The translations under genes and the position numbers were made by a program. Of a stretch of DNA of 64,000 nucleotides, positions 2,640-23,975 are shown in pieces. Location: NCBI RefSeq assembly GCF_058153355.1, contig NZ_CM177019.1, one strand, 5' to 3'. The first letter of the stretch is position 1; each line of letters opens with the position of its first letter. The notes beneath the pieces are model-generated. The model made no database searches. It worked only from the letters and a program-made list of their open reading frames with translations, and had not been told where the DNA came from.

Positions 2640-3128
2640 ATGAGACTGACATCTAAAGGGCGCTATGCCGTGACCGCAATGCTTGACGTTGCGCTCAACT
2701 CTGAAGCGGGCCCGGTACCGTTGGCTGATATTTCCGAACGTCAGGGAATTTCCCTTTCTTATCTGGAACAACTGTTTTCCCGTCTGCGTAAAAATGGTCT
2801 GGTTTCCAGCGTACGCGGACCAGGCGGTGGTTATCTGTTAGGCAAAGATGCCAGCAGCATCGCCGTTGGCGAAGTGATTAGCGCCGTTGATGAATCTGTA
2901 GATGCCACCCGTTGTCAGGGTAAAGGCGGCTGCCAGGGGGGCGATAAATGCCTGACCCACGCGCTTTGGCGTGATTTGAGCGACCGTCTCACCGGTTTTC
3001 TCAACAACATTACTTTAGGCGAACTGGTTAATAACCAGGAAGTGCTGGATGTATCTGGTCGTCAGCATACTCACGACGCGCCACGCACCCGCACACAAGA
3101 CGCGATCGACGTTAAGTTACGCGCTTAA
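2640..3128 (+). CDS. iscR: Fe-S cluster regulator IscR (Rrf2 family)
   Basis: 162-aa [22 protein letters not shown]... with helix-turn-helix N-terminus and Cys cluster ([13 protein letters not shown]). Confidence 0.95.
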
Positions 3129-3149
3129 TTTAACCGTCCTGTTTCGTGT

Positions 3150-3225
3150 TGCATCTGCGTTGACTGCACATACTCACTCCGGTCACTTACTTATGTAAGC
3201 TCCCGGAGATTCGTAAGTTTGTCAA
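3150..3225. repeat. ERIC/IRU-like element fragment in the iscR–iscS spacer
   Basis: gtcacttacttatgtaagctcccggagattc resembles the ERIC core (GTCACTTACTTATGTAAGCTCCTGGGGATTCAC as recalled); the spacer is 240 nt. Confidence 0.4.
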
Positions 3226-3368
3226 CTTGCTGAAACCCGAAACAGTTAGGTTAAAGATAACAAGATATTAGAATCAGGCCGGGGCGTCTCGCGCTCCGTA
3301 AACACGGTCGTACATCCAGCCGGTAGCCTGGTTCCTTGCATTGAGTGATGTACGGAGTTTATAGAGCA

Positions 3369-5432: not shown

Positions 5433-5948
5433 ATGGATTACTTCACCCTCTTTGGCTTGCCTGCCCGTTATCAACTCGATACCCAGGCACTGAGCCTGCG
5501 TTTTCAGGATCTACAACGTCAGTATCATCCTGATAAATTCGCCAGCGGAAGCCAGGCGGAACAACTCGCCGCCGTACAGCAATCTGCAACCATTAACCAG
5601 GCCTGGCAAACGCTGCGTCATCCGTTAATGCGCGCGGAATATTTACTTTCTTTGCACGGTTTTGATCTCGCCAGTGAGCAGCATACTGTGCGCGACACCG
5701 CGTTCCTGATGGAACAGCTGGAGCTGCGCGAAGAACTGGACGAGATCGAACAGGCGAAAGATGAAGCGCGGCTGGAAAGCTTTATCAAACGTGTGAAAAA
5801 GATGTTTGATACCCGCCATCAGTTGATGGTTGAACAGTTAGACAACGAGACGTGGGACGCGGCGGCGGATACCGTGCGTAAGCTGCGTTTTCTCGATAAA
5901 CTGCGAAGCAGTGCCGAACAACTCGAAGAAAAACTGCTCGATTTTTAA
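5433..5948 (+). CDS. hscB: J-domain co-chaperone HscB
   Basis: 171-aa ORF with J-domain HPD motif (QYHPDKF). Confidence 0.95.
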
Positions 5949-5964
5949 TTTCTGGAAGCTAAAC

Positions 5965-7815
5965 ATGGCCTTATTACAAATTAGTGAACCTGGTTTGAGT
6001 GCTGCGCCGCATCAGCGTCGTCTGGCGGCCGGTATTGACCTGGGCACAACCAACTCGCTGGTGGCGACAGTACGCAGCGGTCAGGCCGAAACGTTAGCCG
6101 ACCATGAAGGCCGTCACCTGCTGCCCTCTGTTGTTCACTATCAACAGCAGGGGCATTCGGTGGGTTATGACGCGCGCACTAACGCAGCGCTTGACACCGC
6201 CAACACCATTAGTTCTGTTAAACGCCTGATGGGGCGCTCGCTGGCTGATATCCAGCAACGCTACCCGCATTTGCCTTATCAATTCCAGGCCAGCGAAAAC
6301 GGCTTGCCGATGATTGAAACAGCAGCGGGATTGCTGAATCTGGTGCGCGTTTCTGCGGACATCCTCAAAGCACTGGCGGCGCGGGCAACTGAAGCCCTGG
6401 CAGGCGACTTGGATGGTGTCGTTATCACCGTTCCGGCGTACTTTGACGATGCCCAGCGTCAGGGCACCAAAGACGCGGCGCGTTTGGCTGGGCTGCATGT
6501 TCTGCGCTTGCTTAACGAACCGACCGCTGCGGCTATCGCCTACGGACTGGACTCCGGTCAGGAAGGCGTGATCGCTGTTTATGACCTCGGTGGCGGGACG
6601 TTTGATATTTCCATTCTTCGCTTAAGTCGCGGCGTGTTCGAAGTGCTGGCGACCGGCGGTGATTCCGCGCTCGGCGGCGATGACTTTGACCATCTGTTAG
6701 CAGATTACATTCGCGAACAGGCGGGCATTCCTGACCGTAGCGATAACCGCGTTCAGCGTGAACTGCTGGATGCCGCCATTGCGGCCAAAATCGCGCTGAG
6801 CGATGCGGACTCTGTGACCGTGAATGTTGCGGGCTGGCAGGGTGAAATCAGCCGTGAACAATTCAATGAACTGATCGCGCCATTGGTAAAACGAACCTTA
6901 CTGGCTTGTCGTCGTGCGCTGAAAGACGCGGGCGTAGAAGCTGATGAAGTGCTGGAAGTGGTGATGGTTGGTGGTTCTACCCGCGTGCCGCTGGTGCGTG
7001 AACGGGTGGGTGAATTTTTCGGTCGTCCACCGCTGACTTCCATCGACCCGGATAAAGTCGTCGCTATTGGCGCGGCGATTCAGGCGGATATTCTGGTGGG
7101 TAACAAGCCGGACAGCGAAATGCTGTTGCTTGATGTGATCCCGCTGTCGCTGGGCCTCGAAACCATGGGTGGCCTGGTGGAGAAAGTGATCCCGCGTAAC
7201 ACCACAATTCCGGTGGCGCGCGCCCAGGATTTCACCACCTTTAAAGATGGTCAGACGGCGATGTCTATCCATGTAATGCAGGGCGAGCGTGAACTGGTGC
7301 AGGACTGTCGCTCGCTGGCGCGTTTTGCGCTGCGTGGTATTCCGGCGCTACCGGCTGGCGGCGCGCATATTCGCGTAACGTTTCAGGTCGATGCTGATGG
7401 TCTTTTGAGCGTGACGGCGATGGAGAAATCCACCGGCGTTGAGGCGTCTATTCAGGTTAAACCGTCTTATGGTCTGACCGACAGTGAAATCGCCTCGATG
7501 ATCAAAGACTCAATGAGCTATGCCGAGCAGGACGTAAAAGCCCGTATGCTGGCTGAACAAAAAGTAGAAGCGGCGCGTGTGCTGGAAAGTTTGCACGGCG
7601 CGCTGGCTGCTGATGCCGCGCTGTTAAGCGCCGCAGAACGTCAGGTCATTGACGATGCTGCCGCTCACCTGAGTGAAGTGGCGCAGGGCGATGATGTTGA
7701 CGCCATCGAACAAGCGATTAAAAACGTAGACAAACAAACCCAGGATTTCGCCGCTCGCCGCATGGACCAGTCGGTTCGTCGTGCGCTGAAGGGCCATTCC
7801 GTGGACGAGGTTTAA
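5965..7815 (+). CDS. hscA: Hsp70-type chaperone HscA
   Basis: ATG at 5965 gives 616 aa [11 protein letters not shown]...; Hsp70 signatures ([16 protein letters not shown]). Confidence 0.95.
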
Positions 7816-7816
7816 T

Positions 7817-8152
7817 ATGCCAAAGATTGTTATTTTGCCTCATCAGGATCTCTGTCCTGATGGCGCTGTTCTGGAAGCGAATAGCGGTGAAACCATTCTC
7901 GACGTTGCGCTGCGTAACGGCATCGAGATTGAACACGCCTGTGAAAAATCCTGTGCTTGCACCACCTGCCACTGCATCGTTCGTGAAGGTTTTGATTCGC
8001 TGCCGGAAAGCTCAGAGCAGGAAGACGACATGCTGGACAAAGCCTGGGGGCTGGAGCCGGAAAGCCGTTTAAGCTGCCAGGCGCGCGTTACCGACGAAGA
8101 TTTAGTGGTCGAAATTCCGCGTTACACTATCAACCATGCGCGTGAGCATTAA
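7817..8152 (+). CDS. fdx: [2Fe-2S] ferredoxin Fdx
   Basis: 111-aa ORF with Cys cluster ([12 protein letters not shown] ... C). Confidence 0.95.
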
Positions 8153-8163
8153 CAGAGGTTAGT

Positions 8164-8364
8164 ATGGGACTTAAGTGGACCGATAGCCGCGAAATTGGCG
8201 AAGCACTGTACGATGCATATCCCGATCTTGATCCGAAAACGGTTCGATTCACCGATATGCATCAGTGGATTTGCGATCTGGAAGATTTCGACGACGACCC
8301 GCAGGCGTCCAACGAGAAAATCCTCGAAGCGATTTTATTAGTCTGGCTGGACGAAGCCGAGTGA
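8164..8364 (+). CDS. iscX: Fe-S assembly protein IscX
   Basis: 66-aa acidic ORF at the expected position after fdx. Confidence 0.9.
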
Positions 8365-8369
8365 TTTCC

Positions 8370-8500
8370 GCGTCATGCTTCACGCCGCAGATGCGTTGGC
8401 TGCGCTCGTTCACCCCAGTCACATAGTTATCTATGCTCCTGGGGCTTCACTCACTTGCCGCCTTCCTGCAACGCGAATCATTTAGCGGAAAAATCCTGGG
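8370..8500. repeat. ERIC/IRU element (enterobacterial repetitive intergenic consensus)
   Basis: cgttcaccccagtcacatagttatctatgctcctggggcttcac plus flanking cacgccgcagatgcgttggctgcgctc match the ERIC imperfect palindrome as recalled; lies in the iscX–pepB spacer. Confidence 0.55.
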
Positions 8501-8541
8501 GCTGCCAACTGGCGGCCCTTTTACAAATAAGGATAACTAAA

Positions 8542-9825
8542 ATGACAGAAGCGATGAAGATTACCCACTCGACCCAACCTGCCGACGCGCGCTGGGGAGA
8601 AAAAGCGACTTACAGCATTAATAATGATGGTATTACCCTGCATTTGAACGGGGCAGACGATCTGGGGCTGATCCAGCGTGCGGCGCGCAAGATTGACGGT
8701 CTGGGTATCAAGCATGTTCAGCTAAGCGGTGAAGGCTGGGATGCGGATCGTTGCTGGGCATTCTGGCAAGGTTACAAAGCCCCGAAAGGCACGCGTAAAG
8801 TGGAGTGGCCGGATCTGGACGATGCCCAGCGTCAGGAACTGGATAACCGCCTGATGATCATCGACTGGGTGCGTGACACCATCAACGCACCAGCAGAAGA
8901 ACTGGGGCCATCGCAACTGGCACAGCGTGCTGTTGATCTGATCAGCAACGTCGCAGGCGATCGTGTGACTTACCGGATCACCAAAGGTGAAGATCTTCGT
9001 GATCAAGGTTATATGGGGCTGCACACTGTCGGGCGTGGTTCAGAACGTTCCCCGGTATTGCTGGCGCTGGATTACAACCCAACTGGCGATAAAGAAGCGC
9101 CGGTGTACGCGTGCCTGGTAGGTAAAGGCATCACCTTTGATTCCGGCGGCTACAGCATCAAACAGACCGCGTTTATGGACTCAATGAAGTCTGACATGGG
9201 CGGTGCGGCAACGGTTACCGGGGCGCTGGCATTTGCCATTACGCGCGGTCTGAACAAGCGTGTGAAGCTGTTCCTCTGCTGTGCGGATAACCTGATTAGC
9301 GGCAACGCGTTCAAACTGGGGGATATCATTACCTATCGCAACGGTAAAAAAGTCGAAGTCATGAACACCGATGCGGAAGGGCGTCTGGTTCTGGCAGATG
9401 GCCTGATTGACGCCAGTGCGCAGAAACCGGAACTGATTATCGATGCCGCGACACTCACCGGTGCGGCGAAAACCGCGCTGGGTAATGATTATCACGCGCT
9501 GTTCAGTTTTGACGATGCATTGGCCGGTCGCCTACTGGAGAGTGCCGCCCAGGAGAACGAACCGTTCTGGCGTCTGCCGCTGGCGGAGTTCCACCGTAGC
9601 CAGCTGCCATCTAACTTTGCGGAACTGAACAATACCGGAAGCGCGGCGTATCCGGCGGGTGCAAGTACGGCGGCGGGCTTCCTGTCGCACTTTGTTGAGA
9701 ACTATAAACAAGGTTGGCTGCATATCGACTGTTCGGCGACTTACCGTAAAGCACCGGTTGAACAGTGGTCTGCGGGTGCGACCGGGCTGGGTGTGCGCAC
9801 GATTGCTAATCTGTTAACGGCGTAA
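8542..9825 (+). CDS. pepB: peptidase B (M17 leucyl aminopeptidase family) PepB
   Basis: Conserved start [10 protein letters not shown] at 8542 (427 aa); M17 motif NTDAEGRL present. Confidence 0.9.
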
Positions 9826-9833
9826 ACTAATAT

Positions 9834-9935
<102 letters not shown>

Positions 9936-9967
9936 GTGCCCCGAACGTTGAATGAATTGTGGTTCTT

Positions 9968-10744
9968 ATGTCCGAAACAAAAAACGAACTTGAAGACCTG
10001 CTGGAAAAAGCAGCAACCGAACCGGCGCACCGCCCGGCCTTTTTCCGTACTCTACTGGAATCCACTGTCTGGGTACCAGGTACGGCGGCGCAGGGCGAGG
10101 CAGTGGCTGAAGATAGCGCGCTTGATTTACAGCACTGGGAAAAAGAAGACGGTACTAGCGTCATTCCTTTTTTCACCTCGTTAGAAGCACTGCAACAGGC
10201 GGTCGACGGCGAACAGGCGTTTGTCGTAATGCCCGTTCGCACACTGTTTGAGATGACCCTTGGCGAAACGCTCTTCCTTAATGCCAAATTGCCAACCGGT
10301 AAAGAGTTTATGCCGCGTGAAATCAGTTTGTTGATTGGTGAAGAAGGAAATCCGCTGAGCAGTCAGGAAGTACTGGAAGGCGGTGAATCGCTGATATTAT
10401 CGGAAGTCGCAGAGCCGCCAGCACAAATGATTGATTCACTTACCACCTTATTTAAAACCATTAAGCCGGTGAAGCGTGCTTTTATTTGTTCAATTAAAGA
10501 GAACGAAGAGGCACAGCCTAATTTACTTATTGGCATTGAAGCCGATGGCGATATCGAAGAAATTATTCAGGCGGCGGGAAGTGTAGCGACCGATACATTA
10601 CCTGGTGATGAACCAATAGATATTTGCCAGGTGAAAAAAGGGGAAAAAGGAATTAGCCACTTTATTACCGAACATATTGCGCCATTCTATGAACGTCGCT
10701 GGGGTGGATTCCTGCGTGATTTTAAACAGAATCGAATAATTTAA
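9968..10744 (+). CDS. sseB: SseB (enhanced serine sensitivity protein B)
   Basis: ATG at 9968 gives 258 aa MSETKNELEDLL...; matches remembered SseB N-terminus and K-12 synteny. Confidence 0.8.
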   Translation: MSETKNELEDLLEKAATEPAHRPAFFRTLLESTVWVPGTAAQGEAVAEDSALDLQHWEKEDGTSVIPFFTSLEALQQAVDGEQAFVVMPVRTLFEMTLGETLFLNAKLPTGKEFMPREISLLIGEEGNPLSSQEVLEGGESLILSEVAEPPAQMIDSLTTLFKTIKPVKRAFICSIKENEEAQPNLLIGIEADGDIEEIIQAAGSVATDTLPGDEPIDICQVKKGEKGISHFITEHIAPFYERRWGGFLRDFKQNRII

Positions 10745-10779
10745 AATATGCCGCCCCAAAGGGCGGCATTCGGGCTTAC

Positions 10780-11190
10780 TTGCTGTTCTGAAGGTTGTTA
10801 ACCATCAGTAAATTGTTGCCGGAGGGACTCCGGTTATTATTTACTTCGGAAAACAGCGCACCAGAAACAATAAGTACGATACAGAAGTACCGTATCTTCA
10901 TTGTGCGGTCCATGCGAAGACCGCATCACGACAGCACCACTGGCGATATTGCCGCGATAGCAAGCGCTGAGACGCGCTTGCCCTAACGGTCGCGGAACAT
11001 CCTTTCCTTAAGCCAGCGCCCGCTTGCGAGACGGCGGAAAGGGCCACAGTGGATAATACACTAACAGAACAATAATAACTCTCTTTTGCTTGACAGAAAG
11101 AGAGTTACTGGCGAGTATTGTCTTCGCTGAGACGCGCTTGCATTACTACGGTAATACAACCTGCTGGAAAGGCCGCGAACCAGACCAGCA
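10780..11190. ncRNA. candidate ryfA-family small-RNA locus (strand and ends unresolved)
   Basis: ~490-nt non-coding spacer between sseB and sseA with several strong stem-loops (e.g. 11-bp stem at 11076..11107) and an exact 17-nt repeat (10965..10981 and 11125..11141). In K-12 an sRNA (ryfA) is, to my recollection, annotated between sseA and sseB. Confidence 0.3.
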
Positions 11191-22759: not shown

Positions 22760-23878
22760 ATGCATAACCAGGCTCCAATTCAACGTAGAAAATCAACACG
22801 TATTTACGTTGGGAATGTGCCGATTGGCGATGGTGCCCCCATCGCCGTACAGTCCATGACCAATACGCGTACGACAGACGTCGAAGCTACGGTCAATCAA
22901 ATTAAGGCGCTGGAACGTGTTGGCGCTGATATCGTCCGTGTCTCCGTACCGACGATGGACGCGGCAGAAGCGTTCAAGCTCATCAAACAACAGGTTAACG
23001 TACCGCTGGTGGCTGATATCCACTTTGACTATCGCATTGCGCTGAAAGTAGCGGAATACGGGGTCGATTGTTTGCGTATTAACCCTGGCAATATCGGTAA
23101 TGAAGAGCGTATTCGCATGGTGGTTGACTGCGCGCGCGATAAAAACATTCCGATCCGTATTGGCGTTAACGCTGGATCGCTGGAAAAAGATCTGCAAGAA
23201 AAGTATGGCGAACCGACGCCGCAGGCGTTGCTGGAATCTGCCATGCGTCATGTTGATCATCTCGATCGCCTGAACTTCGATCAGTTCAAAGTCAGCGTGA
23301 AAGCGTCTGACGTCTTCCTCGCTGTTGAGTCTTATCGTTTGCTGGCAAAACAGATCGATCAACCGCTGCATCTTGGGATCACCGAAGCGGGTGGCGCACG
23401 TAGTGGGGCAGTAAAATCTGCCATTGGTTTAGGCCTGCTGCTGTCTGAAGGCATCGGCGACACGCTGCGCGTATCGCTGGCGGCCGATCCGGTCGAAGAG
23501 ATCAAAGTCGGTTTCGATATTTTGAAATCGCTGCGTATCCGTTCGCGCGGGATCAACTTCATCGCCTGCCCGACCTGTTCGCGTCAGGAGTTTGACGTTA
23601 TCGGTACGGTTAACGCCCTGGAGCAACGCCTGGAAGATATCATCACCCCGATGGACGTTTCGATTATCGGCTGCGTGGTGAATGGACCAGGTGAGGCGCT
23701 GGTTTCTACACTCGGCGTTACCGGCGGCAACAAGAAAAGCGGCCTCTATGAAGATGGCGTGCGCAAAGACCGTCTGGACAACAACGATATGATCGACCAG
23801 CTGGAAGCGCGCATTCGTGCGAAAGCCAGCCAACTGGATGAAGCGCGTCGAATTGACGTTCAGCAGGTTGAAAAATAA
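22760..23878 (+). CDS. ispG: HMBPP synthase IspG (GcpE)
   Basis: 372-aa ORF with Cys motif (CPTCSR) of the [4Fe-4S] enzyme. Confidence 0.95.
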
Positions 23879-23879
23879 T

Positions 23880-23975
23880 AACGTGATGGGAAGCGCTTCG
23901 CTTCCCGTGTATGATTGAACCCGCATGGCTCCCGAAATATTGAGGGGCGCGTTGAGGGTTCATTTTTATATTCAG
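23880..23975 (+). ncRNA. candidate 3'-UTR-derived sRNA (SroE-like) in the ispG–hisS spacer
   Basis: Stem-loop gggaagcgcttcgcttccc directly after the ispG stop. An sRNA from the gcpE–hisS spacer is recalled from K-12; not verifiable from sequence alone. Confidence 0.3.

Follow-up and report, generated by a model that had tools for sequence, protein, structure and literature searches.

[quoted passage not shown] Its members are imperfect palindromes of 127 bp and are related to miniature inverted-repeat elements. The family shares with the REP/BIME and Correia/NEMIS families the character of a small extragenic palindromic repeat that is co-transcribed with its neighbors and can alter mRNA processing or stability, and it differs from them in consensus and length. 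In Yersinia, ERICs that adjoin stop codons lower the level of the upstream transcript in an orientation-dependent manner (De Gregorio 2005, as reviewed in PMC2229807 and PMC10969869), and ERICs at 3′ ends unmask an RNase E site in their 3′ terminal repeat, according to the same two papers.

The window analyzed here, a stretch of 64,000 nucleotides, carries the isc locus of E. coli on its + strand, with hscA at 5911-7815, fdx at 7817-8152 and iscX at 8164-8364; farther 3′ lie pepB, from its ATG at 8542 to its end at 9825, and sseB at 9959-10744. Post-transcriptional control of the isc operon by RyhB is already well studied. The operon is treated as iscRSUA-hscBA-fdx-iscX (PMC12533949), and yfhJ (iscX), pepB and sseB are derepressed along with isc when iscR is mutated, in E. 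coli as in Yersinia (PMC4055776, which cites Giel 2006).

An earlier note on this DNA had flagged 8365-8541 as an ERIC element. That interval is exactly the whole iscX-pepB intergenic region, 177 bp, which is unannotated in the RefSeq records of today, as it is in K-12, where the spacer is also 177 bp. The assignment holds for 8365-8491 (+), a complete 127-bp copy of ERIC; it does not hold for 8492-8541, which contain a separate hairpin and the pepB Shine-Dalgarno sequence. The iscX stop codon, TGA, occupies 8362-8364 (+), as given by the open reading frame at 8164-8364 and by the iscX annotation in matching E. coli records, and the first base of the ERIC is the base right after it (gap 0). 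The genes iscX and pepB are on the same strand, and the ERIC is intergenic between them.

Several lines of evidence establish the identity of the 127-bp element. Delihas 2007 (PMC2759123, Table 1a) gives an ERIC/RU-1 consensus for E. coli, and 8365-8491 agrees with it at 105 of 127 positions (83%) in an ungapped comparison, whereas the best ungapped consensus match in 20 shuffles of the 64-kb window reached only 52-58 of 127. For independent evidence, we built a covariance model (R1) solely from ERIC copies at other loci or in other species, leaving this copy out; its sources were yjbE-yjbF, psuT-yeiL, preT-yeiS, pgk-fbaA, ybtA-ybtP, four Serratia copies and two published consensus sequences. 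R1 matched 8365-8492 on the + strand with 130.5 bits (E 2.9e-39) over model positions 1-128 of 128. The consensus and covariance scans that the earlier note had suggested as a check therefore returned a significant full-length alignment, rather than the absence of one, and the 70-nt string quoted there has a single occurrence, at 8381-8450, the central part of the 127-bp element. The family is also dispersed, as expected of a repeat: 59,501 places were counted over 5,425 E. coli genomes (median, 13 per genome), and inspected copies lie at unrelated loci, such as the five gene pairs that contributed to R1. We therefore regard 8365-8491 as a complete ERIC copy with near certainty; the consensus match, the independent model, the copy number and the palindromic covariation described below all bear out the imperfect palindrome proposed at the outset.

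The copy in the window is 100% identical to that of K-12 MG1655, which by our conversion of coordinates occupies 2656409-2656535. The iscX-pepB ERIC is thus a known repeat, already present in K-12, and an ordinary member of its family, with which it shares its 127-bp length, central and terminal inverted repeats, a same-strand intergenic site and multi-copy dispersal. The internal deletions and ~70-bp internal inserts seen at this site in other genomes are likewise known length variants of ERIC. Nothing essential distinguishes the copy beyond its TT...AA termini and a set of site-specific substitutions. The ERIC-PCR primer sequences ERIC1R and ERIC2 each match it at 19 of 22 positions, in opposite orientations around the center, and the central core at 8413-8444 is the ERIC-PCR primer target region. 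The + strand of the window corresponds to the orientation printed by Delihas 2007 (PMC2759123); the ERIC-PCR primers are written in the reverse-complement orientation. A REP/BIME assignment, with consensus units of 35-40 bp, was also considered and rejected, as the ERIC consensus and model fit 8365-8491 instead and REP units appear in the pepB-sseB spacer only.

The terminal inverted repeats of the element (I1) span 26 nt each and are 73% complementary: the left one, 8365-8390 (+), forms the 5′ half of the basal stem and pairs with the right one, CTGCAACGCGAATCATTTAGCGGAAA, at 8466-8491 (+). The central inverted repeat (I2; 8413-8426 and 8431-8444) lies within the core at 8413-8444 (+) and forms the apical stem-loop CCCCAGTCACATAG-TTAT-CTATGCTCCTGGGG. 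The RNA of the whole element is predicted to form one imperfect hairpin, with its two ends paired, at -42.7 kcal/mol (z -3.2). Among 11 aligned copies, compensatory double changes occur at 15 of 34 predicted pairs. In the basal stem they affect pairs 2/128, 4/126, 5/125 and 6/124 of alignment A3, and the apical stem covaries among copies as CTTAC/GTAAG, CATAG/CTATG, CAGAG/CTCTG and CACAG/CTGTG.

Sequence peculiarities of the copy are found at both ends and in the center. The consensus begins and ends in TA, whereas the window copy has TT at 8365-8366 and AA at 8490-8491. When we looked for a TA target-site duplication, the ERIC-less E. coli allele was found to differ in the adjoining bases and offers no clean empty site. 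The lineage of copies at this site is marked by substitutions of its own, with TTTCCGCG on its left end, CGCGAATCATTTAGCGGAAA on its right end and ATAG/CTAT in the apical stem. The right arm, 8466-8491, is the arm best conserved across genera. Its A/U-rich motif, GAATTATTTT in the consensus, reads GAATCATTTA in the window copy; the site lineage has GAAUCAUUUA instead of GAAUUAUUUU, so that the motif is partly mutated.

The element had been placed at the 3′ end of the isc operon. Its position after iscX is correct, but intercistronic describes it better, since it lies between the iscX stop codon and the hairpin that precedes pepB. A scan for sigma-70-like promoters on the + strand between hscA and sseB (5800-10000) found none. 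Because of this result and the IscR-mutant data, the ERIC is most likely transcribed inside a long polycistronic isc-hsc-fdx-iscX(-pepB-sseB) mRNA.

From this position we propose a mechanism. The ERIC RNA would fold within the isc mRNA as a hairpin of about 127 nt whose first base directly follows the iscX stop codon. On terminating at that codon, a ribosome would melt the 5′ arm of the ERIC and so free the A/U-rich 3′ arm. If the Yersinia precedent applies, the freed arm would expose the mRNA to RNase E and shift the ratio of upstream to downstream transcript. In this way the iscX-pepB ERIC would adjust, through mRNA processing or stability, how strongly pepB and sseB follow the isc genes.

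The case for such an intercistronic modulator draws on the stop-codon geometry of the Yersinia elements and on the RNase E precedent. The window copy fits that geometry, with zero gap after the stop codon and the A/U-rich arm on the 3′ side. Like the stop-codon ERICs reported from Yersinia, it abuts an upstream stop within what is probably a polycistronic transcript, and the 3′ side of its predicted RNA hairpin is the one rich in A and U. It differs from them in its partly mutated A/U motif and in that the effect is reported there and proposed here by analogy. The RNase E motif RNWUU is present in the 3′ arm of the consensus and absent from that of the window copy, and for this reason the Yersinia mechanism cannot simply be assumed at this site. 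By analogy, we infer that the window copy has the 'B' orientation of De Gregorio 2005. A literature search outside the primary ERIC catalogues found nothing specific tying ERIC to iscX, pepB or yfhJ, and two surveys of RNase E and RNase III in E. coli (PMC5371410, PMC3082872) leave the locus unmentioned in their main text. Overall, we hold it highly probable that the sequence is best explained as a complete ERIC copy placed between the iscX stop codon and the hairpin before pepB. That this copy acts as an intercistronic modulator of mRNA processing or stability, with a real, selected regulatory effect, is a tentative proposal, and we would put its chances a little below even.

To what extent the element matters at this locus can be approached from its distribution. 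The comparison of strains that had been suggested alongside the original assignment was carried out on 5,425 complete E. coli genomes having the locus, and presence of the iscX-pepB ERIC does vary among them: 3,289 (~61%) carry an ERIC allele. The sample splits into genomes with ERIC alone (~53%), with ERIC containing a 67-bp internal insert (8%; ~425 genomes) and without ERIC (39%; ~2,136 genomes, BL21 derivatives among them). The insert lies inside the right arm and is made of short hairpins, and the ERIC-less spacer measures 57-58 bp. In our reading of alignment A1, about one-third of the ~50 non-ERIC spacer positions differ between the ERIC-bearing and ERIC-less alleles, including another loop, stem-pair changes that preserve pairing and a 9-nt longer tail, whereas the flanking genes differ by just 2-5%. 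This disparity suggests that the two forms are old haplotypes and not the products of a recent clean insertion or excision.

We also examined the right-arm insert itself. It measures 67-69 bp and consists of four consecutive short hairpins (E. coli JCH8249, positions 398-466 of retrieved locus L001; also L012 and L059). A similar sequence occurs at yjfN-bsmA in 11 E. coli genomes.

Beyond E. coli, the ERIC or its remnant follows the iscX stop codon without a gap and keeps a constant orientation, usually as TTTYYGCGTCATG. Full or near-full copies are found in E. albertii, E. whittamii, Citrobacter youngae ATCC 29220, Enterobacter asburiae, Enterobacter sp. ENT03, Kluyvera genomospecies 3 and two Raoultella species. 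The E. whittamii copy carries the 67-bp right-arm insert found in E. coli, and Leclercia adecarboxylata has a homologous one; in Salmonella arizonae (L087), an unrelated stretch of ~70 bp interrupts the element at another internal position, and the Salmonella diarizonae copy is shortened by an internal deletion. Klebsiella oxytoca, K. grimontii, K. michiganensis, several Kluyvera species and one Raoultella keep nothing but the two ends. Among close relatives, a second C. youngae strain, a second Leclercia and the majority of Citrobacter and Enterobacter species have no ERIC. The ERICs of Serratia in this spacer are separate insertions that lie 3′ of the hairpin and occur in both orientations.

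The main rival to a regulatory role is that the element is a functionless relic, left by an old selfish insertion that a permissive spacer has tolerated and that is now decaying or disappearing. Much of the distribution agrees with this: presence varies within E. coli, within C. youngae and within Leclercia, internal deletions have reduced the element to its ends in Klebsiella, Kluyvera and Raoultella, and some copies contain secondary insertions of 67-70 bp. The Raoultella copies are moreover only 69% identical to that of the window. The ERIC-less 39% of E. coli, the 8% with an insert and the several genera with ends only count against function, and together they indicate that the ERIC is dispensable.

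Against the relic stands the conservation of the retained full copies. Compared with the window copy, those of Enterobacter, Citrobacter and Kluyvera reach 86-90% identity, above any E. coli paralogue, of which the best is 84.6% identical. For the same genome pairs, identity is 44-49% at pepB four-fold sites and 49-52% at iscX third positions (fdx third positions were out of register for several species and were excluded from the rate comparison). In E. albertii, the ERIC is 98.4% identical vs 83% for the four-fold sites. On these alignments, a retained full copy diverges at roughly one-tenth of the neutral, four-fold-site rate. Two further observations speak against a relic: the 7-10-nt spacer adjoining the ERIC is unrelated between genera, and the copies at the iscX stop codon share substitutions that are not in the family consensus, which argues against homogenization by gene conversion. 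In none of the frames do substitutions among the orthologous ERICs follow a codon period, so the conservation is not due to coding constraint. We consider the relic a serious contender, if on balance a rather doubtful one.

The same similarity could instead reflect a recent common source and not constraint, if the copies at the iscX stop codon were independent insertions at a hot spot or alleles spread by recombination. The patchy distribution in almost every genus is compatible with this, the separate Serratia ERICs in the same spacer and in both orientations show that the spacer attracts such elements, and the disparity between spacer and flanking genes in E. coli also speaks for it. Against it, the copies all have the same start base, the same orientation and common site-specific substitutions. 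ERIC-less E. coli hold no copy more than 84.6% identical, so that there is no source copy within the species, and the third positions of flanking iscX and pepB are only ~50% identical between genera, so that a transfer could have moved no more than the spacer. An origin of this kind is in our view unlikely.

We next consider whether the element is an independently transcribed small-RNA gene, possibly on the minus strand. Rfam has no family under the name ERIC and gives no match at the iscX-pepB site at its gathering threshold; at an E-value threshold, only V_AS5 and CssrA appear at the site, both below their gathering scores. RF02818 (V_AS5, Vibrio antisense RNA AS5) aligns over its full length (1-129) on the - strand with 44.9 bits (E 1e-8 in a 401-nt search) against a gathering score of 96. 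RF02798 (CssrA) aligns over the whole model with 26.1 bits against a gathering score of 93, and its match at 8293-8419 overlaps the ERIC in the left half only. With scores so far below gathering, membership in either family was rejected by the Rfam criterion. V_AS5 resembles the element in its full-model alignment and its long-hairpin architecture, but it is a Vibrio family and was probably built on an ERIC-like repeat; the likeness of both families is explained by their overlap with ERIC-like repeats, and the full-length V_AS5 alignment agrees with the ERIC identity of the element. K-12 annotates no RNA gene here, and a scan of 8100-8700 found no promoter-like or terminator-like site on either strand. 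A small RNA of the V_AS5 or CssrA kind is accordingly very improbable.

Translation of the element, whether by read-through that extends IscX or from a 36-codon ORF with its ATG at 8375, is equally hard to credit: the iscX frame is open past the TGA through the ERIC and the hairpin into the pepB ATG (8362-8544, 59 codons), the ATG-frame ORF at 8375-8485 is open in five orthologous copies and ORFs in ERIC were noted by Delihas 2007 (PMC2759123), but spacers of 176, 179, 244 and 248 nt break the frame in other genera, nonsynonymous changes equal or exceed synonymous ones in nearly every comparison and the ATG at 8375 has no preceding Shine-Dalgarno sequence. We therefore rejected an IscX-PepB read-through fusion, the frame relation of which is not kept in other genera, and likewise the small ORF at 8375 as a source of constraint, given substitutions without codon-position bias.

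The remainder of the spacer, 8492-8541, has a structure of its own. A G+C-rich hairpin, GGGCTGCC-AACT-GGCGGCCC, spans 8499-8518 (+) and is followed by TTTT up to 8522. Using IscX to retrieve the iscX-pepB spacers of 80 enterobacterial species, we found the hairpin in the form GGGCTGCC-N3-5-GGCGGCCC plus (G)TTT, just 5′ of the pepB ribosome-binding site, in 76 of the 80, from Escherichia to Serratia. Its loops vary among species, and there are a few compensatory variants in the stem. Downstream of iscX, the hairpin at 8499-8522 looks like a weak intrinsic terminator or an attenuator. Only four T residues follow the stem, and a consensus terminator scan did not call it. Since the downstream genes appear to be co-regulated with isc, we suggest that it causes partial termination at most. 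Judged by the species alignment, its sequence conservation is unusually strong for a terminator-like stem, and it may serve as an attenuator, as a processing barrier or as a protein site.

Adjacent to this hairpin is a second predicted interaction. The pepB Shine-Dalgarno sequence, AAGGA, lies at 8529-8533 and the start codon, ATG, at 8542-8544 (+; both from the sequence, in agreement with the pepB annotation of matching records). The segment AUCCU at 8493-8497 (+) is complementary to AGGAU at 8530-8534, which overlaps the Shine-Dalgarno sequence, and the two pair in the minimum-energy folds of both the 50-nt and the 221-nt contexts, with 85% of the ensemble in the 50-nt context. For the 50-nt stretch 8492-8541, in which both this AUCCU/AGGAU helix and the hairpin lie, the folding energy is -21.7 kcal/mol (z -4.6). 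AUCCU is thus a possible anti-Shine-Dalgarno sequence against pepB, as modeled by these folds. The pairing is limited to the ERIC-bearing allele of Escherichia and is found neither in the ERIC-less allele nor in other genera.

The distance from the hairpin to the ATG is 23-24 nt in ERIC-bearing alleles vs 30-35 nt in ERIC-less relatives of the same genera, a contrast seen in Escherichia, Citrobacter, Leclercia and Enterobacter (L033 vs L031, L059 vs L064, L032 vs L042). Kluyvera and Trabulsiella have the short distance without an ERIC. The contrast hints at two old spacer haplotypes common to several genera.

Taken to its furthest, the regulatory reading would see the ERIC that follows the iscX stop codon as an intercistronic RNA element under selection, with a rate of change about one-tenth that of four-fold sites in Escherichia, Citrobacter, Enterobacter and Kluyvera. 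Its presence or absence would then be an old haplotype polymorphism, possibly older than the splits between genera or else spread by recombination, that sets the coupling of pepB-sseB to the Fe-S operon, and the ERIC haplotype of Escherichia would additionally carry the pepB anti-Shine-Dalgarno sequence. We regard this full combination as improbable.

For annotation, the value of the iscX-pepB ERIC call is that the spacer is described correctly; otherwise it matters little. The comparison brought with it a three-allele polymorphism, strong conservation across genera, the hairpin before pepB and a rarer ERIC after iscR. We note that thousands of sequenced E. coli constitute a natural experiment, as they differ in having a spacer without ERIC, with ERIC or with ERIC plus insert. 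If the conservation does reflect function, the locus would be convenient for testing the effects of ERIC on polycistronic mRNAs.

The rarer element is a second full-length ERIC at 3129-3255 (+), directly after the iscR stop codon (iscR, 2640-3128) and in the same orientation as the iscX-pepB copy. It matches the consensus at 92 of 127 positions and model R1 with 101.4 bits (E 5.8e-30). Two nucleotides downstream begins the Rfam iscRS stability element (3258-3367). The stability element lies in the spacer for which RyhB-dependent differential decay of iscRSUA is reported. This ERIC is present in 490 of 5,424 E. coli genomes (9%) and absent from K-12 (DH5alpha, MC4100), relative to which it adds 129 bp at a TAA/TA-rich site with an ambiguous junction. 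Its best paralogue elsewhere in E. coli is only ~72-73% identical, so that a recent local transposition is not its origin. An effect on the iscR:iscSUA ratio is possible.

Other repeats and RNA genes in the window are of a different kind. The pepB-sseB spacer contains an inverted, BIME-like pair of REP units at 9831-9916, which is nothing like 8365-8491 and probably corresponds to the 'RU-3' 3′ of pepB in O157:H7 (Delihas 2007, PMC2759123). Rfam matches at gathering level identified ryfA at 10743-11047 (-; 309.9 bits) and sroE at 23878-23969 (+; 110 bits), which are expected E. coli small-RNA genes unrelated to the ERIC finding.
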